Below are positions 7,043-61,913 of a stretch of 64,000 nucleotides of DNA, piece by piece. The notes beneath the pieces are model-generated. The model made no database searches. It was not told the origin of the DNA and saw only the letters and a program-made list of their open reading frames with translations. The translations under genes and the position numbers were made by a program. Position 1 is the stretch's first letter. Every line of letters begins with the position of its first letter. This DNA is from Balanoglossus misakiensis (Eukaryota; Animalia; Hemichordata), in the NCBI GenBank assembly GCA_040954595.2, contig CM082590.2, forward strand, positions 5,518,001-5,582,000, in the 5' to 3' direction.

Positions 7043-8190
7043 CCATTCTTGCATTCATGTCCATGTACATGATGTGTCTATAGACATATTGTGACAGACA
7101 AATTATTACAACTCTGGTATTCTGTATACAATGTACTTCAAGTAAAGTTGTTCACATTGACTTCATAAATGATCTGTGTCCATTCTTGCATTCATGTCCA
7201 TGTACGTGATGTGTCTATAGACATATTGTGATCAGACAAATTATTACAACTCTGGTATTCTGTTTACAATGTACTTCAAGTAAAGTTGTTCACATTGACT
7301 TCATAAATGATCTGTGTCCATTCTTGCATTCATGTCCATGTACGTGATGTGTACGTGATGTGTCTATAGACATATTGTGATCAGACAAATTATTACAACT
7401 CTGGTATTCTGTTTACAATGTACTTCAAGTAAAGTTGTTCACATTGACTTCATAAATGATCTGTGTCCATTCTTGCATTCATGTCCATGTACGTGATGTG
7501 TCTATAGACATATTGTGATCAGACAAATTATTACTACTCTGGTATTCTGTTTACAATGTACTTCAAGTAAAGTTGTTCACATTGACTTCATAAATGATCT
7601 GTGTCCATTCTTGCATTCATGTCCATGTACGTGATGTGTCTATAGACATATTGTGATCAGACAAATTATTACAACTCTGGTATTCTGTTTACAATGTACT
7701 TCAAGTAAAGTTGTTCACATTGACTTCATAAATGATCTGTGTCCATTCTTGCATTCATGTCCATGTACATGATGTGTCTATAGACATATTGTGATCAGAC
7801 AAATTATTACAACTCTGGTATTCTGTTTACAATGTACTTCAAGTAAAGTTGTTCACATTGACTTCATAAATGATCTGTGTCCATTCTTGCATTCATGTCC
7901 ATGTACGTGATGTGTCTATAGACATATTGTGATCAGACAAATTATTACAACTCTGGTATTCTGTTTACAATGTACTTCAAGTAAAGTTGTTCACATTGAC
8001 TTCATAAATGATCTGTGTCCATTCTTGCATTCATGTCCATGTACATGATGTGTCTATAGACATATTGTGATCAGACAAATTATTACAACTCTGGTATTCT
8101 GTTTACAATGTACTTCAAGTAAAGTTATTCACATTGACTTCATAAATGATCTGTGTCCATTCTTGCATTCATGTCCATGTGATGTGTCCA
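7043..8190. repeat. 138-bp tandem repeat, about 8.3 copies, just downstream of the ROCO stop codon (probable 3' UTR)
   Basis: CCATTCTTGCATTCATGTCC recurs at 7043, 7180, 7318, 7467, 7605, 7743, 7881, 8019 and 8157. Confidence 0.95.
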
Positions 8191-8296: not shown

Positions 8297-11200
8297 TCAT
8301 TTCGTTTGTGTTTTCGCAATTTCTTCGAACATCTCTTCAATCAACGCTACCATGTCGTCTCTTCCCATGGTCTTGAAAATTGCCAACAGATTCTCAAAGT
8401 TGCTTTCGAAGAGGGCTCCCTCTACACGTGGATACTTCTGTCTTGCTTCTCCACTTGACATTCTTGCCATACTGCCTTCGGTGGCATCGATGTCATGTGA
8501 CATGGCTCTGGCACCTGCAGCTGTAGTTCTGTCTCTTCCACTTTGATGTTGTTTCCTCTCAGCACATATACGACACCACTCTTTGAAGAGGTACTCTGTA
8601 ACTGGTCTGCCTGCCCGACCCGCAATCTCTTCAAATCCCATGGTATCCTGGCACTTAATGCCCATCAAATCTGCCATGCGGCCATAGCTCAGAGAAGGAT
8701 CACGTTGAATGTCCATTCTCCTTGTCAGTTTTCTTCTGGTTTCTTCAAGCATCCATTTGATATCACAGCGTTTCCACTTCCTTCGTAAGATCGTTGTGTC
8801 ATGACCTTGACAAAGCAGGTCACAAACATCTTCTGCTTTACCAACTTTTTTGTTGTACACTTTCTTTCCCATGTCTTCTGCACGTAGCACCTCATCGAGA
8901 GTGTAAAACTCTACTTTTTCCATGTTGCTGTGGTTTGCAAGAGAATCTGCACTCAGGATAAGCTGATTCATCCTGTTGCCTGGACATGCGATCGAGAAGA
9001 CATCCTGTATGTCTTTGGAAACCATCTCAAGAAGCTTGTAGCCCTCACCAATCAACTTCTTGTCTTCAACTCGTACACAGACATTGACTGCCCTTCTGCC
9101 ATTGGTCATAAAGACAAGACCTTCAACATCATGGCACACTTTGATACCATTTCTCCATAAGCCACTGGGCGGCTGGCCAAGCTCTGTGAAATGCTTATAT
9201 AGACGGGTCTGTAATCTTGGGAAAAAGCCTGCCGTAAAGGAATCTGTTTCATCGTGGCATTCAAAACGTCTTCCAAGGTAGATGGTCTTCATTCGGCTCA
9301 CCTCCCATTGACCTTCAGGCATATCGTCGTCTTGAAGCCCTGGTATGACGAAAAGTTTCTCTCCCGTCTCTGTGATATCATGTGCTTGACAGAGAAGCTC
9401 AAAATCCTCTAGAAGGTCGACGATCAGTTGGCTGTTAACACCTTCACCAAGTACATCTTCTATCTTGTCCATTGACTGAAAACAATCTCTCTTGAATCTG
9501 GAACTGAATTGTGCAAATAAAGGGGTAGCCAACATTGGTCCAAACATCCTGGAACACAACCAGTTTGGATCCAATACCACGACATCTTTTCTTTCTAGAG
9601 ATGACTTCTTCACAAACAAAAGCTGTAAACAAGAAAAAATATCGTGAAAAATTGTTATGGAAGGAACAATCTGTAACTCTTTTACACATCAACAGCATTA
9701 AACGCTGATAATTTCATTTTGTCAAGTTTGATGTATTGCATACACTCATCCCAGAATTTGTACTAACAGAGAATGGATGAGCAACATGTTGTTTCTTGTT
9801 ACTGACCTCTCCTATGTCATGCAGATAGTTGGTGGCTTTTCGTAAGAAACTTTCGTCAATCGTGGGGTAAATTTCTTTTATTCTTGCAACATATTCTATC
9901 CAATAAAGAGCTGGGAATTTTCTTTTGTACAATTCCCTCTTCTTTTCCATTATCTTGGCACACACGCTTGGAAGCATTTTCACTTTCTAAGAATAAAAAT
10001 AAATGGATAACATGAAATAATTGGAAGTAGCCAAACATTATGTTCAGTCAATTTAGGGACTCTGTCACAAAAAAGAAATATTAAATAAAACCATGACTGG
10101 CCATGCAAGTCTAATAAGTGACACATAAAACAAAGCATAGAATTTTATTTATCCAATGAAAATTTATGTTGAAAATATCTGTAGTATACATGGGGGCAGG
10201 GGACCAAAGAAGTATCTTTGTAAATCAAGTATCATTTTGACAAGATTTTCTTTTGCTTTAAATTCAAATTCTGATTTTCAGTGGAACTGACCTTATCTTG
10301 TTTCAACATTTTCATCATTTGTAATTTGGTAAAAAGCATCTCACAACCATGCATTCCAGCTAACATTATTTTTTGTTTGTAATTACTGAAAATGTTACTT
10401 TTGCCAGAAATTCTAATATCAACTAATACTTGTACAACATGATGAGGATGTAATATTTTACACTTTCAGATATATATTCTTCATGAATATTGTAGTTGTA
10501 CACCAATACTGCAGTGCTATAGTGTATCTGTGCTGATAAAACTTAACAATTCAGAGGCAAATGACTACAGCGAAATATTGTTACCTTTTTCTGATTTAAA
10601 CAATCACGAACTTTCTTCATTTCACTGTCTGTAGAATCACGGCAATTCAACGGAAAGATGTCACTCACTATGTCTAAATAATCTTGAAACATAGTCTGGG
10701 CTTCTGTCAGAACCTCCTTCAGCAAATGACGAGCTGTAAATTATAAAGAGATGATAATATTAATACATACATACATACATACATACATACATACATACAT
10801 ACATACATACATACATACATGCACACACATACATACATACACACACTGTACATACACACACTTGGACAAATGAGAGATATTGTTTGATATATGAAAAAGC
10901 TGACAACACCAACCTAGAGCCATATCAATTCTCTTCAACTTATCAGCTCGACTTGCAACCAATATCACCACTGGTTTCTCGTATCCTTCTCCTGACTTAT
11001 CAAATGAATACCTGTCCATGTGGGTTGTTCCTTTCAGAAACCGCAACCAAAACAAAATCTACAAATGAGAATATTTGTGAAAAGTATTATTTTTGAGTCC
11101 AAGGGATCATGAATTGAATCCAATATGAGATTTCTCATGATTCAGGTAATATCCAGAGCTATGGGATAAACAATGTAAAATAATTATTGAACAACAATGG

Positions 11201-14200
11201 CATGTTGGTTCTGCAGGAGACTAATTATAGAAATATCTGCAACTCTTTCAAAAAGCCAGGAATGGTGACCGAGATAGTGTTGCACATGGAATAAAGTTTC
11301 TCAAACAGCTATATTTTCCATTCCTACAGATAAAACTTGGAAAGTGATAAACAAAACAGTCTAACTTTCCTGTGAAGATTCTTACCTGTGGGAACACACG
11401 TTCAAAGGTGTTGAGTTTACCATTCTCGTCTGTAGCTTTGAACACCAATATGGAGACAGCATTGGGTGCTCCCAGAAACATGTTATGAGTGACGTAATAC
11501 TCAGCCTGGCCGGCAAAATCCCAAACACTGACATTTCCGACGTCAGGAATATGAACACTTTGGACATCAATACCAGGTGTGGGAATGTGTTCACTTTCTT
11601 CAGATTCCAGGGTTGTTTCTTCACTCTTTGATAAGGGGGAGTGAAAGAAAAAATTACATATAATTCCACTATATATTTCTTTGTTTGACGTCATCCTATA
11701 TGAGTGGTTTTCGGGGAGTTGTGCAACTTCGAGCCGTAGATGAGAAGTTGACGTCTCCGTGAAAACCACGAGTATATAATGACGTTAAACAAAGAAAAAT
11801 ATCATGGGATTATATATTTATCACATGACAGGCATCTCTTGCTTCACAAATCACAGAAAATGACATTTTGACGACAGAGTGAGTAATGGTTTATTAAGAA
11901 TTCATTCTGGCCCATCAAGTTTCACACAAGCAACCCTTAATTAATTGTAATATGGCTTACTAGAACTTTAACGCAAATGAAACAAAAATATCAACATACC
12001 CTCTGAAGTGACTCCAATAATGTAGTCTTACCAACTCCACCATCTCCAGCGAAGAACAACTTAAAAGTGTCACATTTCACACCTGGTTCCATCATCAGGA
12101 CCTTGAACTCCTTTCGTCTCTGGTTGAATAAAGAAATCATAAAAATACAATTTTATTTGTGGGTTTGGAGAGTACAGTTAAGAGTGACACCACATTAAGT
12201 AATTTATATCACACTGAAATCAATGGACACTTTGAATTCAAGATGAATAAGAATAAGCACATTTCAGGTTGTATATTATTAAAATTCATGATAATATAAA
12301 AAGTACACTCACCTGAATGTAATCCAACAGCACCTCCTTCTGAGACTCTTTAGCGACATCAAGTGGTGTCTTTCCAGTCTAATTATTTAAGATAAAAAGA
12401 ATTGAAACATTATGATGTAAATATTTATAAAAGTAGTAATAATGTAAGAGATACCATAATTCAAAATTCATTAAATTCTAATGTAATTTTAAAGTTTTGT
12501 TTTACATTTTTCATGAAAAAAATAACCACATCAAGTGACATGTTTAATAGTGAATAAAACCTGAATTTCACAAAATCAACAATCATTTAAAGAAAATGAA
12601 CACTGATTCCTCTTTTCCATCACACTGTATCAAAAGTACAGAATTATTTAAAACACAAATAAGAAAAATCTCCTTATTAGGAATTGTCAGATAATTAGGT
12701 GACAGACAGCAGTTTGCAGATGCTGGAGGCCGACAGACAATCGCCCTATCTGATACTCTCCACATCACTGAAAGTGGAGATAGAAAGTCTCAAAGATAGG
12801 ATTGGCATCGACCGTCATGAGTCAACACCTGCCTGTACAACACCTGACCCGATAGAGGGAGTAGTTTTGATTCAAAGGACAATGGCAAATAGATACATTG
12901 TATCCTAAACAAAATTTACCACAAAAACTACAATGGAAAGAAGACCATTGTGCAAACTCATACTGTTTTAGGAGTGTTTGGTTAAAATAGTGTCCACACA
13001 TTTTCAAGACTTTTATAAAATTCTGCATTTCAAATTCAAAGTTTATGAAGATTAACTACTTGAGAAAATGGGAGTTGATCAGAACACATGGTGTAGGTCT
13101 AGAGTGTCATGGAATAAAATATAAAAGTGGAAGATTGTACCTTATTTTTGCAGTCAATATCAGCTCCATATTGCAACAATAGTTTCACAACTTGTCCATA
13201 ATCCTTCCAAGACTCTTTGCCCATTGCTGCCACATGGAGTGCTGTGTTGCCATCCTATCCAAGAAACAAAAACAGACAATATCATGTAAGAGGTACAACA
13301 AGAAAAGTTATGCATAAACAGCGCAACCAAACAGACTACCAACGTTAACACTGAAATGATAATTAACCTCTAGTTTTTCAACAGTACTTAGGATGCTTAT
13401 ATCATTTTTTGAGTTGGATGTCTCCACGTCAATGTAGCTTTAAATGATATAGTTGAATTAAATGAATGCATTGTGTGTATTTCGTCCACCATGTCAGAAT
13501 GTTGAATTTCAGACAACATAACTTTCCTCTTAATGATGAACAATTTAAAGAAAATATGGGTAGTAGATTGTGCCTTTATTCATCTTGACCGTTTTGAGGG
13601 AAAAACTGATTGGGATCAATTTGTAAAGATCTGCGTAAGACCAGAAAATTTACATGGATGGGAAATCTTTATTTAGACAAAAGACTAGAGATGACTTTGA
13701 TGACCATTAATGTTCAGAAAGTGTTTGTTTGAGTGAAATACTGTGTTTTGACTCGCATAGAGCACCTAAGTTACTGGTATCATTATCAGAGGTACAGAAC
13801 TTGTCTGTGGTCATCCATTATTATGAAGCAGTTCCTTTGTGAGTAACTTATTTTCTTTTCAACACCGTTCAAGTGAGTATTTCTGTATGTAATGGAGGAG
13901 GAGCATGAGAACAATGTCATAACATTTGAAACGTTCTGTGAGGTTTCCTAAACGAACAAATAAACAAACAAATAAATGTTTCTAAACTAATAGAATTAAC
14001 CTGCAATAGCCAGGTTGGTATTTACCTTGTTTTGTATGGTCACATCAGCTTTGTGTTCCAATAACAATCTGAGACCGCCTTCATTGGGACACCCTGCTGC
14101 AGAGTGCAAAGGGGTGTTTCCATCCTGTAAGTAATGAAGGAGGAACATGATGAGGATGTCAGAAAACTGAAATGTCACATGAGTTAATTTCTAAAAATGA

Positions 14201-17200
14201 TCAAATGAATAAAAAAACAAACAACAAATAGTCTTCATAAACTCAAACATCTCAAACAATGAAAAAAACTCCTAATAATGAATTGTTAGATTATTAGGTG
14301 ACAGACAGGAGTTGGCAGATGCTGGAGGCCGACAGACAATCGCCCTATCTGATACTCTCCACATCACTGAAAGTGGAGATAGAAAGTCTCAAAGATAGGA
14401 TTGGCATCGACCGTCATGAGTCAACACCTGCCTGTACAACACCTGACCCGATAGAGGGAGTAGTTTTGATTCAAAGGACAATGGCAAATAGATACATTGT
14501 ATCCTAAACAAAATTTACCACAAAAACTACAATGGAAAGAAGACCATTGTGCAAACTCATACTGTTTTAGGAGTGTTTGGTTAAAATAGTGTTCAGGCAT
14601 TTTCAAGACTTTTATAAAATTGTGCATTTCAAATTCAAAGATTATGAAGATTAAACTACTTGAGAAAATGGGACTTCATCAGAACACATGGTGTAGGTCT
14701 AGAGTGTCACGGAATAAAATATAAAAGTGGAAGATTGTACCTTATTTCTGCAGTCAATATCAGCTCCATATTGCAACAATAGTTTCACAACTTTTCCATA
14801 ATCCCCATACCACTCATCGCCCATTGCTGCCATGTGAAGTGCTGTGTTGCCATCCTATCCAAGAAACAAATACAGACAACATCATATAAGAGGTACAACA
14901 AGAAAAGTTCTGCATAAACAGCTCAACCAAACATACAACCAACGTTAACACTGAATTGATAATTAACCTCTAGTTTTTCAATAGTACTTAGGATGCTTAT
15001 ATCATTTTTGAGTTGGATGTCTCCACGTCAATGTAGCTTTAAATGATAGAGTTGAATTCAATGAATGCATTGTGTGTATTTCGTCCACCATGTCAGAATG
15101 TTGAATTTCAGACAACAGATAAATTTCCTCATAACGATGAACAATTTAAAGAAAATATGGGTAGTAGATTGTGCCTTTATTCATCTTGACAGTTTTGAGG
15201 GAAAAACTGATTTGGATCAATTTGTAAAGATCTGCATAACACCAGAAAATTTACATGGATGGGAAATCTTTTTTTAGACAAAAGACTAGTAAGAGATAAC
15301 TTTGATGACCATTAATGTTCAGAAATTCTTTGTTTGAGTGAAATACTGTGTTTTGACTCGCATAGAGCACCTAATTTACTGAACTTGTCTGTGGTCATCC
15401 ATTATTATGAAGCAGTTTCCTTGTGAGGAACTTAATTTCTTGTCAACACCGTTCTGGTGAGTATTTCTGTATGTAATGGAGGAGGAGCATGAGAACAATG
15501 TCATAACATTTGAAATGCTCTGTGAGGTTTCCTAAACAAACAAACAAACAAACAAACAAACAAATATTCCTATACTGATAGAATTAACCTGCAGAAGCCA
15601 GGTTGGTATTTACCTTGTTTTGTATGGTCACATCAGCTTTGTGTTCCAATAACAATCTGAGACCGCCTTCATTGTTATACTCTGCTGCATCATGCAAAGG
15701 GGTGTTTCCATTCTGTAAGTAATGAAGGAGGAGCATGAGAACAACGTCATAACATTTGAAACATACTGTTAGGTTTCCTAAACAAACAAACAAACAAACA
15801 AACAAACAAACAAACAAAAAACAAACAAACAAATAAATGTTTCTATACTGATAGAATTAACCTGCAGAAGCCAGGTTGGTATTTACCTTGTTTTGTATGG
15901 TCACATCAGCTTTGTGTTCCAATAACAATCTGACACCGCCTTCATTGTCAGACCCTGCTGCAGAGTGCAAAGGGCTGTCTCCTCTCTGTAAGTAATGAAG
16001 GAGGAGCATGAGAACAATGTCATGACATTTGAAACATACTGTTAGGTTTCCTAAACAAACAAACAAACAAACAAACAAACAAAAAACAAACAAACAAATA
16101 AATGTTTCTATACTGATAGAATTAACCTGCAGAAGCCAGGTTGGTATTTACCTTGTTTTGTATGGTCACATCAGCTTTGTGTTCCAATAACAATCTGACA
16201 CCGCCTTCATTGTCAGACCCTGCTGCAGAGTGCAAAGGGCTGTCTCCTCTCTGTAAGTAATGAAGGAGGAGCATGAGAACAATGTCATGACATTTGAAAC
16301 ATACTGTTAGGTTTCCTAAACAAACAAACAAACAAACAAACAAACAAACAAACAAACAAAAAACAAACAAACAAATAAATGTTTCTATACTGATAGAATT
16401 AACCTGCAGAAGCCAGGTTGGTATTTACCTTGTTTTGTATGGTCACATCAGCTTTGTGTTCCAATAACAATCTGACACAGCCTTCATTGTGAGACCCTGC
16501 TGCATCATGCAAAGGGATGTTTCCATTCTGTAAGTAATGAAGGAGGAGCATGAGAACAATGTCACAAAATTTGAAATGTAATGCGAGGTTTCTTAATAAA
16601 ACAAACAAACAAATATTAAAATGTAATGTGAAGTGTAAACAAACAAACTAACAATAAATAAACCAACAAATAAATAAAAATTTCAAAGTATCAGCCATAT
16701 TGCAAAAAACAACCAAGAATGGCATACTGACTGATTTGAAAGGATAATCCACAGTCCTTCCACACACAAAATGAAAATTGCCGACTGTTAAAGTGAATAC
16801 AGATTCAAGTATGACAGTGAAGAATCTCAATTGATTCTAACAGCGAGGAAAACACTTTGATTGGTGATATAGATTTGATAATGGATGTTTTAGTCTCCAT
16901 AGCTAAGTTAGGGGTGGACCATTTGATATTCAGGGTGGGAGGGATCTGGAAGATTAAAAAAAAGATTGCCAGCAAAATTACAGCGATGCCTTGAAAACAC
17001 AAAACACAAAAAAATCCATAAAAATTTAATTTCTGGAACATATTTATTCATTCAGGCACAAACTGTGTCAACTTCTTTGGCCAAATTGTAAAGATCGTTA
17101 AATTTAGAGTACAATGTGTCCTACTGTCCTTCCTATGGCTGGATCCCAAGGCTATCATGGTCATTAAAACTAAATCAGTACGGGTAATAATTTTTGGATT

Positions 17201-20200
17201 TTCCCTCTTCTTGTTCAGGGGTTAGCTTGTTTCTTCCCATTGAATTTGGATCATGCAAAGTAATTTTGGATGAAAATAATATTGTGTTGTAATTAGGTCT
17301 TTTTAAAAGGATTTTTTTTAAATTATTCATTTATGTAGCCATGTTATCCATAATGAAGTAACAAGTCAGTTCACGTACCACATCCTTCGCACTGACATCT
17401 GCACCATGGCTAATCAACACCCTGACAGCATCCAATTGACCTTTCCTGGACGCTTCATGCAATGCTGTGAAACCATTCTGGAATGAAGACATTTAAAGTT
17501 GGAATAAAAATGACATCACCAATCTGATACTTGGAATGTGTCAACCGCTCAATCTAATATTCATTTCTTGTTAACAACAAGAAATGAATATTCACACACT
17601 CCTAGCAGCAAGAGAAAGATCAAATTTAACTCTACAAATAAATGTTTCATGATTTCCATCTGACAGTCAATAAAATAATCATCAAAAGTTTCCACTGTGG
17701 TCATGAAGTTGTAAGTACGCATGTAGCCACGTTATCCATAATGAAATATTTCTTGCTGAAAAAAGAAATAGAATCTAATGATCTGTCAGTGAAAAGCTGT
17801 AAGGGGTTGTCAACATATGGGGCTGCTGTCATGGTTGCCAATAGAAGTGGTGTTGCAAGCAAATTGAAGTCTGACAATAATTTGATCATTAGTGTGCATT
17901 GTGTTTGCCAAAGGTTGGCATTGGCTTGTACTGACAGTAATACAAACATAAAGTATGTGAAGGATGTGTCCACAATAATTCGGCAGCTTTGGCAGTTTTT
18001 TGAAAATTCCCCAAAGAGGTTAGCAGCATATCTGAAAATCAAGAAAAGCTTGCAAAAATAAAGTTAACCTCTGACAAGAGTCAGAAAATTGTCATGCACA
18101 GACTTAAAAAAGCTTGCAACATCAGGTGGTTGAGTTTCAATCTAGCTGTAGAGGCAACTCTGAGGGATTTGGAGGCATTGCTCCTTACTCTGAATGACTT
18201 TGAAGATGATGCACTTGCATGTGGCCTGCTAAAGAAAATAAAGTCGGTGAAATTTGTTGGCACATTGTATATATTGCAGTCTGTATTGCCCATTTTGTCA
18301 GAGCTGTCTCTTGTGTTTCAAAGAGATCAAGTTAACTTCTCCCTCATTGCAAGCATGGTTTCAGCAACTAAAGATAAACTGAAACAGATTCTCAGTGATA
18401 ATGTGCCAATAAAGAAGTTTGTGTCTGATAGTGACTCATTCACAAATATATCTTCTGAACTATCTTTCCAGGGCAGCGGCAAGCTTGATCTTGAAAGTCT
18501 GATGAGAAAGTACATTGGTGCTCTCATAGAGAATATAGATAGTAGGTTTGCTGAGTCATCTCCAGTGCTCACTGCACTGTCTGTCTTTGACCCATTGAGT
18601 ATGCCAAGTAAAGAAAATGCAACTTTTAGTTCATATGGGGAAGCACATATCAAAGTACTTGCTGATCACTTTTACCACAATGAGGAAGTTCAGAGGTCGC
18701 GGTAAATTTTTTTTGAGTGCGTTTTTTTGACGCATTCGTCAAAAAAATTGCGTCAAACTCCTTTCAGCCTGCGTCCTAGACATGTCTAGTCCAATATTCA
18801 TTAAACAAAATTAGCTACATTTTGAGTACAAAAGGTTGGGCGCACTAGTGGTTGCTACATTTTGAGTACAAAGTTTGCGCGCACAAGTGATTATTTTGAT
18901 CCCAGGGGGATAGTCAGCGGTATGCGGTATCACACGTATGGTTTCCGTTGACCATTGTGCATATAGAGCGGCCGTTCCTATGCGTCAATATTGACGCACT
19001 GATTTAGATTTCTGCGTCCAAGTGAGGATTTTTGCGTCAAATACGCATACTTTCTGCGTAAACGCGACCTCTGGAAGTTGCTGTAAAAGAAAACAAAACA
19101 CAGAAATTAGTGAATGAGTTTACACAACTTAAATACTACTATGTAGATTACATGAAGGCAAATATGCCTACTGATGTTGAGGAATGTAAAGGCACTGTTA
19201 CACCAACTCAGTGGCTCTTGACTGAGTTCGTGAGATGTGACAGCTTAACCCCATTTTTCCCAGAGATAACTAAAATAGCTGAAGCTGCACTCTGTGTTCC
19301 TGTGAGTAATGCTTAGCCTGAAAGGGGTGCAAGCACTTTGAAGAATGTCAAAACTAGATTGAGAAGTAGACTGTCAAGTGAAATGTTAGAATCTATAATG
19401 CATATCCCCCAGTTGCCAGTGCTGAGGCAGAACAGATAATATCTCGAGCTGTAGAACAGTGGGAACAAGCCAAAAGTAGAAGATACCGCACAAAAGTACA
19501 GGTGCATGTACCATCATCATGTGTAGACAGTGACTCTGATGGGGCTCCAGATGGGGCCATTTATGCTGATGCTTCAGTGCAGGTTGATATTGAGGTTGAG
19601 ACTGAGGAGGAAAGTGTTTCCATACAACATGAAGTTACAGAAGTGTCAAGTGCTTTAGGGTTATCAGAGAACTCAGACCCAGATAGTGATTTTGAATTTG
19701 ATTGAAGACTGTATTGTAACATGATACATAACTAGAGCTGTAATAAAAGGTTAAAACACTCAAATGAGTTTGTGTGTATGTGTTTGTGTGTAGAATGAAT
19801 TGGGGGGGGGGGGGGGGGGGGGTCAAAGGTCAACATGTCCCTAGCCCCCGCATGATTGGCCCCCTACTTTCAACTATGACCCTCTACTTCATATTTAAGT
19901 GAAACCCCTGTGAATTAATGAGTCAGTTCACGTACCCTATCCTTCGCATTGACATCTGCACCATGGCTAATCAACTCTCTCATAGCATCCAATTGACCTT
20001 TCCCGGACACTTCATGCAATGCTGTGGAACCCATCTGGAATGAAGATGTTTAAAGTTGGAATAAAAATGACATCACCAATCAGATACTTGAAATGTGTCA
20101 ACCGCTCAATCTAATATTCATTTCTTGTTAACAACAAGAAATGAATATTCACACACTCCTAGCAGCAAGAGAAAGATCAAATTTAACTGTACAAATAAAT

Positions 20201-23200
20201 GTTTCATGATTTCCATCTGACTGTCAATAAAAGAATCAACCAAAGTTTCCACTGTGGTCATGAAGTTGTAAGTACGCATGTAGCCATGTTATCCATAATG
20301 AAGTAACAAGTCAGTTCACGTACCACATCCTTCGCATGGACATCTGCACCATGGCTAATCAACTCTCTCATAGCATCCAATTGACCTGTCCTGGACGCTG
20401 AATGCAATGCTGTGGAACAATCCTGGAATGAAGACGTTTAAAATTGGAATAAAAATGACATCATTAATCTGATACTTGAAATGTGAGTCAAACTACTTGA
20501 TAACGAATTTCATCACAATGAGCTTCAGTCACTCTATAAAAAATCGCGTCAAGGACATGGTGGTCCCATTTAGGGATTACACAGAAGAAGTCTACACCGG
20601 AGTACATATACAGACAGACGCAAATACACACATAGAGAGATCAACAGGCAAACACTGACTGACCCATAAGCTGCCAATGGTGTCCTGTACATACACCAAA
20701 TAGAACAGCTGGTCTCTTTAATAGTTGGCCAGTTATGTAAACATGCAGGAATTTGCTGTGTATACAAATGACAGTAGGGGTGTCTCTCTTATTTATACAA
20801 AGAACTACTGTAAAACACTTTTTTTCGCGAGTCAAAATTTTCGCGATATGGAGAGAGGCCACTGTTACGCGAGTATAAATTTTCGCGTTTTCACACATTG
20901 TTCTTTCACAAACTATATGTACTCGTGTCTTTATTTTCACGTTTTTTTTTGGCTCTCGCGTATTTAGCGTAAATTTAATGCTCGCAAAAATAAAGTGTTT
21001 TACAGTATGTAGTGGTAATTGCTCTTCATGAGATAAAATATTTTGCGTTATAAGACAATATATCCTACAAAATATAGAAGTTCCAAATTATCTAGGATTT
21101 GACTCCATAATAATTCTAAAGAAGCCAATCCCATTAACTTACAACTCAAATTTTAAAATAATCAACCATACAGTGTACACTTTCTGAGAAATATAATTTT
21201 TTATCAAAATTCGAAAATATGCCCCAAAAATACAAGATATTGTCCCCACAAAAAAATTCACACTTTAATCAAAGGTTTTGTAAATCATCATGAGAACTCA
21301 CCCCGGAAAGTAATGGGGGTAGAGGGTCTGAGAAAGAGTTTTGACCAAAAATGGCAAAAATCACCCCAAAAATATACTATTGAATTCTTCACGTTGATTT
21401 GAAAAACATACATGCAAATCTTACCAAATTCCAATGCAATCTGACAAGCAGTTTTAGACTTGGAGGAAAAAAAATTATCAAAAAAGCCAAAAATTGCTCC
21501 AAAATTATAAAGATGCAAATTTTGCAACAATTTAAACAAAACTATAGTAACTCAGATCACATATATGAAGCTTCATACTAAAATGTCAAAGAAGTCGGCT
21601 GATCAATTCCAGAAAAGTAGATTTTTTACCAAAAATGTGAAAAAAGACAAAAAAATGCATAAAAAATAGAAAATTCACTCTTTTAGCTCAAAACATACAG
21701 AACCGTGTGAGGTTAACAAAAGACTAATTTTCAAATCAATATGACCATTGGTTGTTGAGTTTCTTCAGTTTTGACCAATTTCACGTTTTCCCAGCTAATT
21801 TGCATATTTTGGGCAATGACAACTTCATTTGAACAAACTCCCATCTACAGCTCATAATGCATCAACACACCAAATATGGAGGTTACACGCGGTGGTTTTC
21901 AAGTTTTTGATGTGGACGGACATACAGACATCCATACATACATCCATACAGACGCAACTGATTCCATAAGGTCCCATGGTATATTACATCACCAAATGGG
22001 ATCTAAAAATGGTTTTGATTTAAGATGGTGTGCTATTTCAGTAATAGACAAAGATTGATATGAAACCGAATGATCATAATAATTGTTATTTTTTCTGAGG
22101 TTGAGTGACAATTCTCTATGACCAAAATACATGTGTGTAGCTGAACCACATTAAACACAACAAATATTTTAACACACCATGCAGCGAACCCTCGGTTGTG
22201 ATTCGTCAATACGCCGTCACATGACCTTTGTCATTTCGAACTGTTCCCTAGGGCATCAGTTCGATCGGTTTCTGCCCAGTACTGTTGCCTGGATGTGGTG
22301 TGTGTCGTGTTTGGTGTGTTATAAAACACATGATGACTGACACATTTGGGCAACAGTGTATTTTTGATGACCTCGGGACTGCCAGTCACACCAAAACAGT
22401 CTGTTTTCCCTCGGGCTATGCCCTCGGGAAAACAAGACTGTTTTAGTTGTTACTGGCAGTGCCCTCGGTCATCAAAATACACTATTGCCCTCATTGTCAG
22501 TCATCATGTGTAAAACTGGAATTGCTGATGGGGCCGATCGAGTGCCAGTGGGTCTAATGTGTGTGCGTTTTTAATTCTGTGGTTACAAATGACAAACAGT
22601 GTCTCTGAAATATTTCTAGTCTCATCAAGTGTGAACATGGTATCAGTTTATAGTAGTTTTGTTCAATGTGGTTCAGCTTAGTGCTACAACAGTAACAGCA
22701 TCAGGGGTGCTATAGAAAGCGGTGTTGCGAACTGCAACAACATATTTGCAAACAGGAAAGTGCGTTGGACCTTGAAAAACGCCCTAGTTGAGAATTGATT
22801 CCCACCAAGGAGAAATTGAGTTGACCCCTAAAAATACCTAGAAAACATTGGTTGAGGGCGCATTCAACATGGTGCAAACTGTTTGCAGTGGACATCCCAG
22901 TGTCAGTAAGTGTATTTTTCATGGAAAAATTAACATAAGGAATATTTTGTTTGCATCAAGAATCCATTTTATTTCAACAAAAATCATTATTTTAAGAGGA
23001 TATTTTCATTAAAATTTGTTGCATACCAGAAAGCCAGGCTGTCTATTGTTATTTTGTTGTATGTAATTGAAATACAATTTCAGGCAAATTTATTTAGCTC
23101 TTTGCGTGCACTGCACATGAAAAATAAAATATCAAACGCTAGTCTTGAGCGATGACTCTGAATTAAACATCGGTCAATACAAAACACTTACCACATACTG

Positions 23201-26200
23201 GTAGTAACCCTTTGCATTGACATCATATCCATCAGCTATCAGCGACTGAATCTTTGCAACATCACCCGTCCATGCGGCATCGAAGAGATCCTGTAACATT
23301 CAACAAGAAACACTTCTTTTATCAAAATATTCTCAAAATGCAATCATAAGCAACAGAAATATAAAACAAAGGAAAAAACATTGAAATCATCATTAATGAA
23401 GAATTATGAAAACAAAACATGATCATGTCACTGTCAATAAAATAATGACATCATATTGTGAGTAAACAAAGACAAGACAAAACAGCAAGATCTCCAAAGG
23501 GCAACAGGAAAACAGAAATACAAAACCGGTGGTGGCACTCCCAGGGAAAATGGACATTGCTTCTCCATAAAATTTCAAGACTTGATCCTTTTTCCATGAC
23601 TTTTCAACAATACAGATAGACAAATTGCGAAATATAGAAGATTATTATACACCTACTGCTGTAACCTATGGAGTTCCGTAATACAATAATTCGTGGTATC
23701 ACCATACAATAATTATTAAAATGAGGACGCGGAGTCCAATAACACCAGGGTTATTGGACGCATTTTGATTCACGGGTGTTTAATGTGAACAATGATGATA
23801 TTACACCCTACTCTCACAAAAATTATATATAAAAAGTACACAGTCGTTATTAAACAAAATTATTGGTGACCCAAGATGCGAAATAAGTCAAAATCCTCGA
23901 TGAAATTTCAGTCGAAGGAATCTGTGAACGAACAGGCGAGCGCGTTCATTTCAAGTATCAGAACGAGCTCAGCGCAAGCAGCGTAGAATGTCGCGCGCGA
24001 GACAGGCAGTTCGACACTAGCATCACCTGATGCGCAAGGTGAAGGCGCGTTCGATATGCAAATTACATCATGGCGGTGTCTGAAAACTAGAAAGTCCGAT
24101 AGCGGCCAATTTATTCTTTATCGTTCATGAAGAACGTTCAGAAAAGGTGTATAATAATAAGGTTATTCACAAAATACCGGGACTTATGTGATTGTCCTCG
24201 TACATCGTACGCTTCGGTATTGTCCTCGACGCTGCGCGTCTCGGACAATACCTGCGCTGCATGATGTACTCGGACATAAATCCCGGTATTTTGTGAATAA
24301 CCTTATAAAATCAGACAATAAAAGCCCCCTTGGCGCTTAATTTACAGAAACTGGGACAGATAATGCCATAATACAAATACATTTTAGCAATAACATTGTT
24401 TCTAATACAAAGAACTTGGCTTTAGACACCCATCTGTATTTCAAATCTCGCTTGAACATTGTTGGAAGAAGTATCATTTTTTTTATCATTTTCAAAGACA
24501 GTGATGATAACTGGAAAGCATCCCCTTCTCTGTGATAGTTTTGGGAACATGCATGGATAGCCATTATCCCTGAGTGTATCACCACCACTGGGGTAAAAGT
24601 TCACAATCTTTTGACAATCACATTCATATATTTTCTTTATTTTCTCATTCTGCATACAGAAATATACAGAGCTTCCCTCTGTAGTTTTTCTCTGTAGTAC
24701 CGTAGGTACCATGAGTATGTGAGAAATAACACAATGACTTTGTTGCAGACAAAATTGATGTTCAAGAATGTGGTCATTAAACAATGCAATTTAACAAGAA
24801 TGATATGAATACTTTTCTATCACTGCTACAAAAACCAAGTGATCAAAGGTTAGCATGACATTAAACTGAGTGCGGCTGAAACACCCTTCGCTTACAATCG
24901 ACGTTTGTGTCACCTTGAATGAACTCGCCTACAGGTCAGAAAGGTCATTGTCTTTTGATATGGTAATTGGTATCTATGTGGAGTGAGCCACTGTAGAGAT
25001 GCTAATCAGACTCTGGAATGATTGACTATACAGTAATACAGACATAGATTGAAAACGATTTGGGCTGTATATTGGATACTTAGTAAGCTATTTAGTGTTT
25101 TTTATTCAAAATTATCTCTATGACATTTGGAACAATTAAAAAAAAATTCTGTTTACATTTGCACTTTATATTCTGCATAAATCAAATATGGCCGCCAAAT
25201 GAATGTTTGACAGCTTAATATCATACTCCACCATATACAATAAGGTTCTGGCATAGAAAATATGTTTTAGCACTAGAAAAATACACAAAAGAGAATGAAA
25301 AATGGTTCCAGATTCAAGCATACACTGAAAAAGAAGGTCTAAGTTATAGCTAATGGAGTAAAAAAATAGTAAGGTAACATCTCAGTTTATTTAACAGGTG
25401 TTCGTGTAACCAAGTCGCCACAATACGTTTCAGCTGATTTTTAAGACTTAGATATATGATCTAAATATTATTTTCGGAGATAAAGTACGACCTTCAAGTT
25501 AAATAATAATCTACAAGCGTCATTTAATTGACATTTTAATACTTTAGGAAGTATATCGTTAAACCGATGTCAGGTTTAATGAAGTCATGTGATTATAATT
25601 ATTTGTTGCATTGCTATTACATTTTCATTTTACATATTAATGTAGGGGAGTTTTATATTTGCTTCGTTACGCATTTCTAGTGCTACAACATATATTCTAT
25701 GGTAGAACCTTATTATATATGCTGGAGTATGATAAACTGTCAAACATTCATTTGGCGGCCATATTGGATTTATGCAAAATATAACATGCAAATGTAAACA
25801 AAATATTTTCAAAATTGTTCCAAATGTCAGAGAGATAGTTTTGAATTAAAAACACTAAAATAGCTTACGTAGTACCCGATATGCTGCCCAAATATGGTTT
25901 TGTAGGAATACTGTTCAGCATATTGAATTTATGCAAATTATGAAACATGCCTATGTCAAATATTATTCCAAAATGGTTCTTCATGCAAATGAAATATTTT
26001 TAAACTTTAAAATAATGGAAAATGTCCTGTTTTTTTCTTGATATTTAGCTCCAAAATTTTCAATATTAAATTTATGCAAATTAGACATATTTCCACAAAA
26101 TGGATTCGGGTGCATTTTTGATATGTTGTTCTAGACACCTCTCCAAAATATATTCTGAAGAAAAAAATTATGTTGCAATTTGTATTGGGTTAGGTGCCCA

Positions 26201-27077
26201 AATGTTGAAATCTCGTAGATTGACTAGACTATAAGTGCGACTGAAACACCGTTCGCTTACAATCAACATTTGTGTCACCTTGAATGAACTCGCCTACAGG
26301 TCAGAAAGGTCATTGTCTTTTGATATGGTAATTGGTATCTATGTGGAGTGAGCCACTGTAGAGATGCTTATCAGACTCTGGAATGATTGACTATACAGTA
26401 ATAAAGACATAGATTGAAAACGATTGATTGTGATAACAAAATATGACGAGCAGTTTATTACAAGTGAAATCTTTGTATGTCCAGCACAAACAACGAACAG
26501 TCTCCATGATGTTAATTGTTACAAGTTGTGTGCCCCACCCACAGTCTCTCCATGATGTTAATTGTTACAAGTTGTGTGCCCCACCCACAGTCTCTCGATC
26601 CACACAGACACCTCACTCAGAACTCACGGATTGACTGACTGAATTCCACAGATGTTTGGACAGTCATTGTCATGCAGAACAAATCAGAGCTTCGCGTGTA
26701 GACAGACATTTTAGGGGTACAATACACGCATAGCACAGAGCTGGTTGGAGCTGACTTGCAATTGGAGCCCACATATATTGCCGTGTCTACAAGTTGTTGT
26801 GTGCCATGTTGTATTTCATCGACAATTTGTCAAGTTTTCACAACTGTCATTTTGCTGCGACATGTTCTGTCCGAGCGGTAATTTGTAAATTTTGTCCATC
26901 AAAAGTTTCATTCCACCCGAAACATGAATAATGTCAGCAGACGGATATTTATTCTGAAACACCTGATGATTAGATTATGGGCGTCCATGACCAGAGACGG
27001 AATTCTACAAACTCAGAAACTGTTGCCCGTTCAGTTCAAGGGTCACTTACCAGTGACCTCCATTCCTGGGAAGCCAT
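8297..27077 (-). CDS. Ankyrin repeat-Roc-COR-Death domain ROCO protein (DAPK1-like, kinase-less), 19 exons, about 1123 aa
   Basis: GT-AG exons in transcript order: 27051-27077 (MASQEWRSL, acaATGG), 23192-23290, 20324-20422, 19936-20034, 17379-17477, 16429-16527, 16152-16250, 15887-15985, 15614-15712, 14741-14854, 14026-14124, 13141-13254, 12313-12378, 12000-12119 (P-loop GDGGVGKT), 11386-11625 (PTPGI, WDFAG), 10914-11058 (ILVASRAD), 10585-10733 (LNCR), 9807-9986, 8297-9622 (COR: VVLDPNWLC, GFFPRLQ, LWRNG; C-terminal death fold). Phases are compatible and the total of 3372 nt is open. Confidence 0.88.
10763..10860. repeat. (ATAC)n microsatellite in a ROCO intron
   Basis: Direct reading. Confidence 0.95.
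12660..15860. repeat. About 1.6-kb tandem segmental duplication, each copy carrying one C-type and one B-type ankyrin exon
   Basis: Near-identical sequence at an offset of about 1600 bp (12699 vs 14298; exons at 13141 vs 14741). Confidence 0.92.
17746..19910 (+). pseudogene. 5'-truncated hAT transposon with decayed ZNF862-like transposase, in a ROCO intron
   Basis: ORF pieces (D/Y)GAAVM...VHCVCQRLALA, RWLS, and hAT dimerisation motif CVPVSNA*PERGASTLKNVKTRLRSRL with an in-frame stop and frameshifts. Right end is GTGAAACCCCTG at 19910. The left TIR is absent. Confidence 0.88.
18691..19073. mobile_element. Non-autonomous hAT-like MITE nested in the transposase, 6-bp TSD GAAGTT
   Basis: TIR CAGAGGTCGCG / CGCGACCTCTG with flanking GAAGTT repeats. 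Removing it restores the frame HNEEV-AVKENKTQKLVNEFTQLKY. Confidence 0.88.
20808..21005. mobile_element. About 200-bp Tc1/mariner-like MITE (TA TSD, CTGTAAAAC TIR); other copies 35703-35908, 36970-37178, 54215-54421, 60209-60421 and several partials
   Basis: TA-CTGTAAAACAC...GTGTTTTACAG-TA with internal TTTCGCGA repeats. Confidence 0.85.
22326..22511. mobile_element. Palindromic repeat element with CTCG-GGC-TAT-GCC-CTCG core
   Basis: ACACATGATGACTGAC...GTCAGTCATCATGTGT inverted arms. Confidence 0.7.
23643..24306. mobile_element. Repeat element ending in a palindrome (24157-24306) with CTCG-ACGC-TGC-GCGT-CTCG core
   Basis: ATAAGGTTATTCACAAAATACCGGGA / TCCCGGTATTTTGTGAATAACCTTAT, plus an inner TATTATACACCT / AGGTGTATAATA inverted repeat. 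Confidence 0.6.
24869..26425. repeat. 192-bp direct repeat (24869-25060, 26234-26425) flanking a foldback element fragment
   Basis: Near-identical 192-bp copies. Between them, 25052-25280 is inverted relative to 25675-25900. Confidence 0.85.
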
Positions 27078-27155
27078 TGTTATGTCATTAACATTGCCTT
27101 GGCATTCATTCACTAATTACATCATTTAGCACCCGTCTTTTGTTCGAACGTCCAG

Positions 27156-27222
27156 TTATATAACTCCAGGTTGGACAAGTGAAAGTCCTTTGGTTCCAAG
27201 ATGGCGTCGTCTTGTCACGTGA
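27156..27222 (-). promoter_or_regulatory. Putative ROCO core promoter: TATA-like box, IRF-type site, YY1 motif, E-box
   Basis: TTATATAA 27156-27163 lies about 80 bp upstream of the ATG. Also AAGTGAAAGT 27177-27186, CAAGATGGCG 27197-27206 and GTCACGTGA 27214-27222. Confidence 0.45.
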
Positions 27223-30200
27223 TTTAGGAGGTAATGGGCGACTTCAAATAAATGGGGGACAGGGGGGAACAGACTACTAATTTTGAACCCAGGTGGGGCA
27301 CTCACTTTATGGCTCGTCTAGACTTTTGACACACCGATTTTGGATAGAATGAAGTCTTTTGACCAGTATTAAACTGAAGGACGACTTTTGAAGCCGGATT
27401 TTGACCGACAATTGAGTTTGTGTTTTGGAGTTTTTACAGCAGAGTCTCCCCCGGGGTCGTTACGCTGCAAAGAAAAAACAGAATGTTCCGGTTTATAGAG
27501 AATCTTGTCGTTAAATGAAAAATCAGAATTTGCCAACAAAACTTATTTAGTTTCTATCATATTAGTATCCAGCTACTCTCCCTTAATGAATCCATGAGCT
27601 TTAACTTTTTTGGGTCACGAAATTCATTTTCAAACTGTGTGAATATTTAATTCAGGTCAAACAGATTGTATGAAATGAAGTATATACACATATTATAAAC
27701 TCTATTAAGTATGGGTGCATATGCAAGTTTTAACCAGATAAACAACGGAACATGGCGGCCACTACGGGAAAATGCAAAATTCAATGAAAACAGTGCATTC
27801 CCCTCTTTGAAACTTTATCACCAAAGCATATTTCACTTCGAAAATTTGCCGAACACTTTGAAATAGTCCGTAGACTTACTGTTGCAATTATGGTGAGAGA
27901 ATTGTCTGTTGAATTGAAAGTCTCTGAAAGTCTGAACAGAGAGACGAGCAAGAAGACAAATCAGAAGAGCCCAGAAAAGGATCGAGTATGAACTACATTG
28001 CAAACCAAACATTGTCACATTCATTGTACATTATAATGTTTAAACAGTGTATAGTTTGAATAGTACTGGCCGGGGTTCGCTGGTATGTAGGTCGACATGC
28101 CTATGCATGCGGAGGAAGGTGTTGTCATAGCAACACACAGCCTTGTCACGCCAAACGGGAATGCTGTATGTTGAAGGGCCTAATCGGGGGTCTGCAGCAC
28201 GTCCCTTCATAAATTTAAGGGTGGACTAATTTATATCCTGGCTAGAAGTGGCGGCCTGCTAGATTGCGTGGCAACGACAGATTTGCTTTTGCCCATGGCG
28301 TGAAGTCTTCAGTAATATTATGAAGGGTATAGGCCGAAAGAAATAGGGGGGGGGGGGTCATACTTTTGAAACCTGTCTATTAGGGAGGATCACATTCTAC
28401 AAAACTGACTCTAGGGGGGGGGGGGCAGAGGTCCGATTTTAGAAAGGGATGTTGGGGGCAGGGTCACCGTTACATGATGGACCGTCCCCAATTTCCCCCA
28501 ACCCACAGCTGTAATTACTGAAGCCTCCCTTAAGGTCAAAATCCACGAAAGCATCAATATGGGATTTTGAGAGCCATAGAGATTTGGAAAGTGTTCATTT
28601 ATACGCAATTTGGGTATATTCCTGGGGAGTTCAAAAGTATATTTTTCTTCTTTAATTCATGAAAACGTTGCTAATATCAGTTCTGTGCCACAAAAATCAA
28701 GCTAATATTGTTTATATAACATTTACAGGTTATTTACGACAAATTTATTGTCTATTTTTTTATTTATTTATTTTATTTAATTCATTCATATCAAACACAG
28801 GAAGTTTGTCTACTTAGGTTAGGATGACTGAAACAGGTGTGAATCACCTATACAGAGCCAGTTGAGAATAAAAATGCCTTGCTCAAGGGCACAACATCTT
28901 GGCCATAAAGTCACATGACCATTCTCAAATAGAAAATCCATGGCCATGTCCATGTCTGACCACTAGGCCTAGATGTCTTCTTGAATGTATTTCATCTATG
29001 GATGTTTTACTATTTCAAATTGAAGTTGCGTCATTTCCACTCAGAAGTCAAATAATGAAGCGACTTGTTAGAATTTGTCCTCTCTCGTATACTGGTTATC
29101 TTCATCTTGATTGTGTGCTGAAATATTATGAGGGATTTTATTCTGAAAATTGTCACAAGAAGCCAAAACTTCCCTTTATTTTCTTCTTGGCGACTATGGT
29201 CGATTTATTTCCATAGTGTGTCACATTCCAATGGAATGAATTGTCTTTCTCCCCATGAAAAAACATCTAGCCCCCTTAGGATACCAAATGATGACTCCCT
29301 GAGTACTTAACTCAGTGCCAAGTCTTCAAACATCCAAAGGATAATTTGCCTGATAGTAGTTTTCTCTATAATCAATATCACTTGCAACTACAACACAACC
29401 ATGAACTGTTACACAGAAAAGAACTTGCTTCTCTTTTTCTTTCTTTAAAGGTTGCGAGGTGAACCAGTCACAAATCAACATCGTAACCAGGGTAACTTCC
29501 CATTTCATGTCAAAGGTCATACTTCTATCCTCTGCTCGCATTAATAGTGATGTTTTGTCTGTTTGGGGGGGGGGGCGATTTCTGAGGGAGACTACACTTT
29601 CTACACGCTCAATCTTGAAGGTAGCTGTGTTGTGATTGGTTATCTACACATTTGTCTCAGGAGGCAACCAATCAAAGCACGGTTTACTTTCCAGGAGTTG
29701 AGTGAACAGAAGTGGGTTTGCTTTCAATACGTTGGTTGTTTCCACAAAAATCAGTCCTCAAAACTCTTCCATGCTTTTTGAATAAACGTGTAAGCAAAGT
29801 CTATTTGAAAAAACAAAGAAGATTTTCATCACCTTGGTTTCATAAAAAAATCAATAATGTTCACCATGGATTTAACACAGATTAGCAGCCATCTTGAATT
29901 TCAAATTTGAGACAATTTTGTCATTTAAATTTTTTACGATGAATAATGATCTGTTTTCTCAATTTGTAGAGAGAATTATCTAAAGTTGTATTGAGGAAAA
30001 TATGAACTCAATTTTCAGACTGAATTTGAAGGTGCATGTTAAAACCAAACATGAGAAGCAAGTGGGAATAGTTCATGTCTTGTATTGCAATAATTTGGCG
30101 GCCCATGTTCCACTCGGGAGAAAAAATGCCAACGAAGGAGACACACATATACACAAAAGATTGCAAAAGTAAATGATTTATTTTAAAAACATCAAGGATT

Positions 30201-34625: not shown

Positions 34626-34697
34626 TAACAATAAACACACAATAAAAGCAGAAAAAAAAAGTAACTTCTCTAACATGATTTCAAGTCGTTCATTTAA

Positions 34698-36135: not shown

Positions 36136-47673
<11,538 letters not shown>

Positions 47674-55509: not shown

Positions 55510-61913
<6,404 letters not shown>

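Follow-up and report, generated by a model that had tools for sequence, protein, structure and literature searches.

The window, a 64,000-nt stretch of the Balanoglossus misakiensis genome, carries a minus-strand gene at 27077–8297 (model read by coordinates from the window), in which 18 introns, all GT–AG, separate 19 exons. The exons join without a frameshift into a single open frame of 3372 nt, encoding 1123 amino acids plus a stop. The domain order is 11 ankyrin exons, Roc, COR, and a predicted death fold; the model has no transmembrane part, and the architecture is cytosolic. The model is predicted from DNA, with exon 1 (27 nt) and the acceptor of exon 15 (AAG) as its weakest boundaries. 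It aligns end to end with homologue P0001 (38% over 1096 amino acids) and with P0155 at 49% over 729 amino acids, and homologue P0003 also carries ~10 residues ahead of its first repeat, as exon 1 would give. The features of the locus are as follows.

27177..27186, plus strand: AAGTGAAAGT, which we take to be an IRF/PRDI-like element, ~100 bp upstream of the ATG; a weak hint.
27051..27077, minus strand: exon 1, predicted start, 9 codons, with ATG and GT donor in the sequence.
23192..23290, minus strand: A1, N-cap-like ankyrin exon, single copy, resembling the P0003 N-terminus.
17379..20422, minus strand: family B ankyrin exons A2 (20324–20422), A3 (19936–20034), and A4 (17379–17477); 388-bp unit; Pfam Ank.
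17749..19910, plus strand: 2.16-kb insert in the A3–A4 intron, likely a broken DNA transposon, tentatively of hAT type, with matching flanks on either side and ORF fragments.
15614..16527, minus strand: family C ankyrin exons A5 (16429–16527), A6 (16152–16250), A7 (15887–15985), and A8 (15614–15712).
12664..15814, minus strand: 1.6-kb duplication, A8 with A9 (14741–14854, 114 nt) and A10 (14026–14124) with A11 (13141–13254, 114 nt).
12313..12378, minus strand: C-cap-like half-repeat exon, 66 nt, phase 0, aligned to homologues.
10585..12119, minus strand: Roc GTPase exons 12000–12119, 11386–11625, 10914–11058, and 10585–10733; Pfam Roc.
8297..9986, minus strand: COR exon 9807–9986 and last exon 8297–9622 (end of COR-A, COR-B, predicted death fold, stop); Pfam COR-B and AlphaFold.

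Each of the 11 ankyrin repeats occupies its own symmetric exon, nine of 99 nt and two of 114 nt, in phase 0 at both ends, as a sequence-only reading of this DNA had described. Pfam Ank matched eight of the nine exons submitted from the 11; A1 on its own gave no Pfam match. The symmetry is not peculiar to the ankyrin exons, five of the six non-ankyrin introns being likewise in phase 0. Sequence comparison agrees that 10 of the 11 exons, A1 being the exception, derive from three recent exon-plus-intron duplications, with units of 388 bp, 265 to 277 bp, and 1.6 kb. Pairwise nucleotide identity is 88% among A2, A3, and A4. The copies A5 to A8, spaced by 277, 265, and 273 bp in units that contain (AAAC)n, are 89 to 100% identical, and A6 equals A7 over all 99 nt, with an identical run of 273 bp. 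The A8–A9 and A10–A11 units match at 91% over 1578 bp; the 114-nt exons, A9 and A11, bear a 5-amino-acid loop insert within which 8 of 15 nt differ. Thus far the proposed exon-shuffling build holds as tandem duplication of exons with their introns, but the duplicated order, B-B-B-C-C-C-C-D-C-D, is explicable by tandem copying alone and needs nothing more. One four-gamete conflict among the C copies hints at exchange among them. The ORF fragments of the 2.16-kb insert had no Pfam match.

The gene had been called kinase-less, and the upstream region agrees. None of 83 minus-strand ORFs of at least 48 amino acids in 23291–41000 matched a kinase or ankyrin family (shorter exons could escape), and the catalytic-loop motifs HRD and DFG occur in the window only at 60.5 kb, past an RRM gene. 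The AAGTGAAAGT motif, chosen after the sequence was viewed, has three matches in the window versus 0.27 expected.

Pfam recognized Roc (E 9.6e-7) and COR-B (E 1.3e-8) in the gene, along with weak P-loop cross-matches (E 0.01–0.08). The G motifs GDGGVGKT (P-loop), TPGID, DFAGQ, and SRAD are intact and common to homologues. COR directly follows Roc, G1 to G3 are intact, and G4/G5 are variant, which makes the protein a ROCO. The family profile matched LRRK2 Roc-COR at E 3e-34, and the COR fold matched 3dpu/3dpt with a Z of 15.4. Neither Pfam nor Foldseek returned a death domain in the tail, and folding the tail from its sequence alone gave a poor model (pLDDT 48.5), which was set aside. In the AlphaFold model of the COR/death region (pLDDT 88), the predicted death fold has six helices and is interrupted by a long insert, a disordered loop of ~40 amino acids. 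Its comparison with 3mop_K gives an rmsd of 1.9 over 93 residues and a Z of 12.0, below the tool's caution line of ~13 for helical bundles; rows 8 to 27 of the structure comparison are nearly all death-fold chains. HHalign gives 97% for the gene tail versus Pfam-Death stretches of relatives. Model and profile comparisons thus support a predicted six-helix death fold and, with it, the ANK-Roc-COR-Death architecture first proposed.

Sequence similarity places the gene in an expanded kinase-less ANK-Roc-COR family of hemichordates, echinoderms, and amphioxus, whose members RefSeq auto-names "DAPK1-like." Clusters occur (at least 6 Ptychodera, at least 7 Saccoglossus, and at least 2 Glandiceps), and ankyrin number ranges from ~2–3 to 18 among hemichordate relatives. 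A multi-copy family of varying ankyrin number had been anticipated, and none of the testable findings named against that proposal, such as an ankyrin number fixed among relatives or an upstream kinase exon, was encountered. Of 30 relatives scanned, 23 had Ank, 15 Death or CARD, three caspase, one a GT4-conflict, and none an N-terminal kinase. Death, CARD, caspase, and GT4 replace one another as tails in the family, and amphioxus members on short Roc-COR branches (0.06–0.10) bear different effectors. The Roc-COR tree, built with FastTree after leaving out 80 matches covering <400 amino acids and 11 isoform duplicates, contains no kinase-bearing DAPK1. The family appears distant from DAPK1, because no kinase-bearing DAPK1 is found among the best 150 of 209 matches; the five matches returned by a further search include no DAPK1.

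Recent duplication is not a trait of the whole family: of 33 relatives whose repeats were found by motif, just 6 have clusters of near-identical repeats. Among 12 relative pairs, differences of whole ankyrin repeats occur in two, each made up of amphioxus RefSeq models. Contigs of one sample contain exon pieces 12 to 14% diverged, with different introns. Contig depth was rejected as a measure of copy number: for one sample, two runs gave ratios anywhere from ~0.8 to 6, and a repeat in an intron raises the counts. Our literature search found no paper on this animal kinase-less ANK-Roc-COR family; the text and one supplement of a hemichordate immune challenge study (PMC10210618) contain no DAPK, ankyrin, or Roc term, and neither Roc nor ankyrin is mentioned in the main text of PMC7653742.

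Among the ankyrin copies, 27 of 31 variable codons alter the amino acid, codons 21 to 32 hold only three nucleotide changes, and framework codons are conserved. At six DARPin-type binding positions, codons 1, 3, 8, and 11 to 13, 15 of 72 bases differ versus 82 of 1682 in the co-duplicated introns (p = 4e-6), and only 1 of 43 four-fold sites differs; the excess at the ankyrin face therefore looks like diversifying selection, as judged from base-difference counts among ten short sequences with non-independent pairs. The variable binding surface proposed earlier gains a sequence-level signal in this way. The excess persists without the pair that reuses A8 (12/54, p = 1.6e-5), and against the highest intron rate (8/88), the harshest yardstick, p is 0.043. 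The definition of the face set is external, but it was applied with the codon table already in view; among all sets of six codons, 1.1% reach a score as high. Whole exon and intron differ significantly in only two of eight blocks, and conversion homogenizing introns could lower the intron yardstick. The literature search found no paper giving DARPin position numbers or a general ankyrin intron rule. Near-identical repeats of six relatives show 110 residue differences in total, and 48 of these lie at the same face positions. These positions vary in any ankyrin protein, so this protein-level signal may equal relaxed constraint. What is new here is the excess amino-acid change at DARPin-type positions of the copied ankyrin exons.

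In our reading, the locus is an intact ANK-Roc-COR-death gene without a kinase, a member of an expanded family, and probably encodes an intracellular sensor of non-self, because the predicted binding surface is where its recent repeat copies diverge most rapidly. Under ordinary repeat turnover, it would be a DAPK-like paralogue serving as a non-immune scaffold, its phase-0 ankyrin exons duplicating by drift and its surface unconstrained. Such turnover would fit the phase of the other introns, the 27 relatives without near-identical repeats, the (AAAC)n and transposon-like insert within duplicated introns, and the frequency of tandem repeat duplication (in the available text of PMC1553488). However, relaxation predicts the neutral rate at face codons (~5% in introns, 2% at four-fold sites), whereas 21% was observed, and caspase, CARD, and GT4-conflict effectors occur in relatives, which leaves drift unlikely. 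Diversifying selection could also be real and the partner non-microbial, as in allorecognition, gamete or symbiont recognition, or a selfish element. The ligand cannot be named from sequence, and the same signature marks fungal HIC-NLRs described in allorecognition (available text of PMC13449251); yet the cytosolic architecture and the caspase and GT4 effectors of amphioxus relatives, counter-invader according to section 15 of PMC8195603, make such a partner distinctly unlikely.

That a regulator of a conserved host protein is not expected to diversify its binding face, and that the family lies far from DAPK1, speaks against a kinase-less decoy or regulator of DAPK1 or death-domain signaling that dimerizes with endogenous partners. 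We find this very improbable, even though the domain order is that of DAPK1 minus the kinase, DAPK1 dimerizes via Roc (available text of PMC6337361), and the predicted death domain holds a long insert. Recent, silent pseudogenization, or assembly error that swelled part of the array, would accommodate the identical A6/A7 run; among contigs listed from sequencing runs, none spans the array, and ankyrin order in other copies is unreadable there. Against this stand the 19 exons without stop or frameshift, the 18 canonical introns, the conserved framework codons, units that differ in microsatellite length, and, weakly, low-depth contigs of a second study, in which no base differs across the 568 nt of three wholly coding pieces, against 24 in the 577 nt of a mostly intronic one. 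Either reading is hardly credible.

The sensor logic of the gene has precedents in the literature on brown-algal LRR-ROCOs, bacterial AP-GTPases, and fungal HIC-NLRs. In the available text of PMC11378527 (citing Zambounis 2012), brown-algal LRR-ROCOs also place a repeat sensor ahead of Roc-COR with one repeat per symmetric exon, and form a gene family of proposed immune receptors with positive selection on the concave face. They differ in having LRRs, 72-nt phase-2 exons, demonstrated alternative splicing, and no death domain reported there; the repeats here are ankyrins by Pfam. DAPK1 (ROCO group 3, as given in the available PMC6337361 text) shares the ANK-Roc-COR-Death order but has a CaM-regulated kinase, whereas the gene here is kinase-less, multi-copy, and fast-evolving, with variable ankyrin number. 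Fungal HIC-NLRs (HNWD, NACHT-ANK; PMC13449251, as available) also have near-identical repeats that are hypervariable at a few binding positions and are gained, lost, and exchanged, together with a cell-death effector, but combine a STAND ATPase with an N-terminal effector and C-terminal repeats; the present gene has a Roc GTPase, the reversed order, and introns between repeats. Bacterial AP-GTPase counter-invader systems (PMC8195603, section 15) share fast-evolving N-terminal repeats with Roc-COR, a swappable C-terminal effector (caspase, GT4, TIR), and several paralogues per genome, but are LRR-based and of predicted function; that section names DAP kinase as the sole metazoan counterpart. 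Trichoplax and Aplysia expansions (PMC11378527 and PMC9334734, as available) are animal ROCOs with CARD, death, or TIR, but in LRR/TPR or TIR contexts, and those texts give no ankyrin exon cassettes or selection analysis. The likeness to NLR/STAND receptors drawn earlier survives for the sensor–NTPase–effector logic but not for the NTPase, which is Roc rather than NACHT or NB-ARC; by analogy, the gene would work like an NLR, yet it is not one.

As an intracellular sensor, the protein would bind a variable ligand through its ankyrins, use the Roc-COR GTPase as a threshold switch, and recruit death-fold adaptors through its predicted death domain. If the protein behaves like CtRoco, LRRK2, and DAPK1 (PMC6337361), ligand binding may shift the Roc-COR monomer/dimer state and GTP cycle. 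The predicted death domain may seed an assembly resembling that of the Myddosome or FADD, with NF-kB signaling or cell death as the outcome. New specificities would arise by germline unequal crossover or conversion between near-identical exon-plus-intron units, followed by selection; combinatorial exon skipping is conceivable.

We tentatively extend this reading, with more doubt than confidence, to invertebrate deuterostomes at large (acorn worms, echinoderms, and amphioxus, and probably molluscs, sponges, and some fish). They may hold overlooked "DAPK1-like" intracellular immune receptors, natural DARPin sensors on a Roc-COR switch with swappable Death, CARD, caspase, or GT4 effectors. Cassette duplication and positive selection, perhaps with combinatorial splicing, would have diversified them, and they would stand beside NLRs as a GTPase-based equivalent. 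Counts of invertebrate immune receptors normally cover TLRs, NLRs, RLRs, and lectins. Should kinase-less ANK-ROCO genes be sensors, a receptor family would be missing from those counts in several deuterostome genomes, one whose evolution paralleled that of brown-algal LRR-ROCOs and fungal HIC-NLRs. The family would then offer a kinase-free system for how the Roc-COR switch, the module mutated in LRRK2, links ligand binding to death-domain output, and a natural case of evolution varying the positions randomized by DARPin engineers.

The gene, its exons extracted from the window by script, comprises 19 predicted exons running from 27077 to 8297 on the minus strand, with GT-AG boundaries at all 18 introns and an uninterrupted reading frame of 1123 aa. 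In gene order it reads:

Exon 1, minus strand, 27 nt (predicted)
Eleven ankyrin exons (A1 to A11), after exon 1, minus strand, nine of 99 nt and two of 114 nt
Cap exon, after the ankyrin exons, minus strand, 66 nt
Four Roc exons, then one COR exon, minus strand
Last exon, minus strand, 1326 nt

The junctions are predicted from sequence, the boundary of exon 1 and the acceptor of exon 15 being the least certain. Phase 0 is found at all 12 introns bordering ankyrin exons and at five of the remaining six; animal ankyrin repeats elsewhere are often encoded one per 99-nt exon. Pfam found Ank in eight of the nine ankyrin exons searched (A1 had no match; A6 and A7 were left out) and recognized both Roc and COR-B in the predicted protein. 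Two homologous proteins from the database search, P0001 (38% over 1096 aa) and P0155 from Ptychodera flava (49% over 729 aa), align to it without large gaps.

An AlphaFold model of the last exon (34 sequences, pLDDT 88.3) has six helices at its C-terminus, with a low-confidence loop (373–401) between helices 4 and 5. Compared with 48,161 chains, its N-terminal part matched COR (Z 15.4) and residues 285–441 matched death domains, among them 3mop_K (Z 12.0, rmsd 1.9, 93 aligned), MyD88 (6i3n, Z 12.0) and Pelle/Tube (1d2z, Z 11.7), in a range below Z 13 where helical bundles may be generic by the tool's own caution. Independently of the structure match, a tail profile of 18 sequences matched nine Pfam-Death stretches of relatives (HHalign 97%). 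Fold and profile support the Death domain proposed by the sequence-only reading, though Pfam gave no Death match in the predicted protein. A disordered insert (residues about 370–408, window 8400–8520) breaks the death fold between helices 4 and 5, and its length differs among hemichordate members.

The gene was also said to lack a kinase. No kinase or ankyrin family match was found among 83 minus-strand ORFs of at least 48 aa at 23291–41000, tblastn with 12 relatives put all 97 matches within exons of the model, and the window's HRD and DFG kinase motifs map to 60.5 kb, past an RRM gene; together, these data bear out the absence of a kinase. The neighboring genes are:

40500–45800, minus strand, two RRM exons (Pfam RRM_1) and glycine-rich exons, presumably of an hnRNP A1/A2-like gene
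58800–62000, minus strand, separate gene with kinase motifs and an exon that we take to resemble CDK4/6

Tandem repeats of 119/120 bp lie next to and within the RRM gene, a 177-bp array closes the window (62331–64000), and a 138-bp satellite (7031–8180; 8.3 copies, 96%) lies a short way past the stop codon of the ROCO gene. Just upstream of its ATG (27090–27210) are what we assume to be TATA-like, IRF/PRDI-like, YY1-like and E-box-like words; the IRF-like 10-mer recurs at 30646 and 37870.

Self-comparison of the window grouped the duplicated ankyrin exons into family B (A2–A4; 88% identical, 388-bp unit, one copy displaced by a 2.16-kb insert), family C (A5–A8 and A10; 89–100% identical) and family D (A9 and A11; 89% identical), with a 1.6-kb duplication taking in a C+D exon pair. 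The earlier exon and duplication counts were correct by this comparison and the script-read exons, and a kinase-less ankyrin-Roc-COR gene with duplicated ankyrin exons is real. The insert (17749–19910) is broken and transposon-like, arrived after the family B duplication and holds a nested repeat near 18700–19080. Shuffling of ankyrin exons is less well supported than the sequence-only reading had it: a single four-gamete conflict (codons 7–8 versus 18) gives a hint that C copies have exchanged sequence.

The ten duplicated exons differ at 31 codons, 27 of which change the residue and four of which vary only silently; the differences are concentrated in codons 1–13 and in family D's 5-aa insert (8 of 15 nt), with three in codons 21–32. 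We defined the binding face as the six DARPin-randomised positions, which we take to be exon codons 1, 3, 11, 12, 31 and 33, a set adopted after a first look at exon differences; the position numbering of the library randomisation is reportedly that of Binz 2003. Aligned DARPin repeats vary visibly at codons 3, 11, 12, 31 and 33, and at 8 in 6mol. Four exon pairs were picked for a long homologous intron (A4/A3, A8/A7, A11/A9 and A10/A8). Their face codons differ at 15 of 72 bases versus 82 of 1682 in introns (p = 4e-6), a signal limited by the small sample and by possible homogenisation of introns through gene conversion; non-face codons differ at 29 of 339. Leaving out the pair in which A8 is used again gives a face count of 12 of 54 (p = 1.6e-5), and against the highest intron rate seen (8 of 88) p is 0.043. 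At four-fold sites the difference is 1 of 43, CpG-type changes make up only 3 of the 44 in exons, and the score of the face set is reached or exceeded by 1.1% of all six-codon sets. Counting against selection, whole exons versus introns were significant in only two of eight blocks. The face-to-intron comparison leaves a variable binding surface better supported than before. Clusters of repeats at least 75% identical occurred in 6 of 33 relatives, with 48 of 110 differences on the six face positions, a pattern that fits selection or relaxation alike at the protein level, where sequence cannot separate them.

A first homolog search gave four matches, all hemichordate, and an exhaustive one 209, of which the best 150 underlie the family surveys; none of 175 family proteins collected carries a kinase catalytic motif. 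A domain scan of 30 long, strong matches found Ank in 23, Death or CARD in 15, caspase in three, and GT4-conflict and a C-terminal kinase fragment in one each. By the names of 30 proteins and the matches of the first search and a further one, there are at least six clusters in P. flava, seven in Saccoglossus kowalevskii and two in Glandiceps talaboti, with others in Asterias, Amphiura, Anneissia, Branchiostoma, Oscarella and Polypterus; most are automatically named "DAPK1-like." Hemichordate members have 2 to 18 ankyrin repeats by a motif count whose regex misses some. In a FastTree tree of 70 Roc-COR rows, the gene adjoins P0155 (support 100) inside a 17-row clade (support 98; all 14 named rows hemichordate) that joins echinoderm and amphioxus clades (41 rows, support 99). 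The hemichordate neighbors make an acorn worm the likeliest source of the window. The 90% cluster of P0155 has five members on four contigs, some perhaps haplotigs. Contigs of one sample differ from the coding exons at 27 of 229, 23 of 159 and 21 of 157 positions, and they join exon ends across different introns, pointing to paralogs, whose number contig depth cannot give. Clusters, tree and diverged exons put the multi-copy family on firmer ground.

In the amphioxus clade, P0021, P0022, P0024 and P0028 have almost identical Roc-COR modules and different tails (CARD, CARD+Death, GT4-conflict or CARD+caspase), pointing to recent effector swapping. In two of 12 pairs of relatives, both amphioxus RefSeq isoforms, one member has whole ankyrin repeats (99 and 34 aa) that the other lacks; two other pairs lose Roc exons, so the ankyrin-skipping models may be annotation noise. 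The case for combinatorial splicing is thereby less strong than in the sequence-only reading. The fish protein P0037 (Polypterus senegalus), within a 7-row clade (support 100), has ankyrins and a related COR-containing tail, with the kinase motif absent; the family may persist in some vertebrates. Atlas look-alikes of the relative P0003 include Roc/COR/Death/CARD clusters in molluscs, sponges and chordates, as leads only.

The product is a ROCO, neither DAPK1, since the kinase is absent, nor an NLR, since the STAND ATPase is absent, and it is probably a cytosolic sensor, the likeliest of the readings considered. Beyond gene anatomy and the selection signal, we infer the following steps. Near-identical exon+intron units would misalign in the germline, giving duplication or conversion that is always in frame, and selection would then diversify the ankyrin concave face. 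Ligand binding would shift a GTP-dependent monomer/dimer cycle of Roc-COR, by analogy with the cycle described for characterised ROCOs (PMC6337361); exposure or clustering of the death domain would follow, and this domain would recruit death-fold adaptors.

Neutral repeat turnover, which the face excess would not suit, is unlikely. Recognition of a non-microbial partner by the changing face is rather improbable. A role as a decoy or regulator is quite improbable. The near-identical copies might suggest a pseudogene or assembly error; given the open frame, this is very improbable. As a cytosolic sensor, the protein would resemble in its way of working brown-algal LRR-ROCOs (PMC11378527), fungal HIC-NLRs (PMC13449251) and bacterial AP-GTPase systems (PMC8195603). 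The wider literature drawn on includes PMC9334734, PMC8683736, PMC10542815, PMC10210618, PMC1553488 and PMC11463336; the main text of PMC7653742 contains neither Roc nor ankyrin terms. A literature search with subscription journals mostly outside its scope found no description of a kinase-less ANK-Roc-COR family that has expanded in deuterostomes and no report of selection on such ankyrin exons. We tentatively raise the possibility that invertebrate deuterostomes carry an uncounted class of GTPase-type immune receptors.
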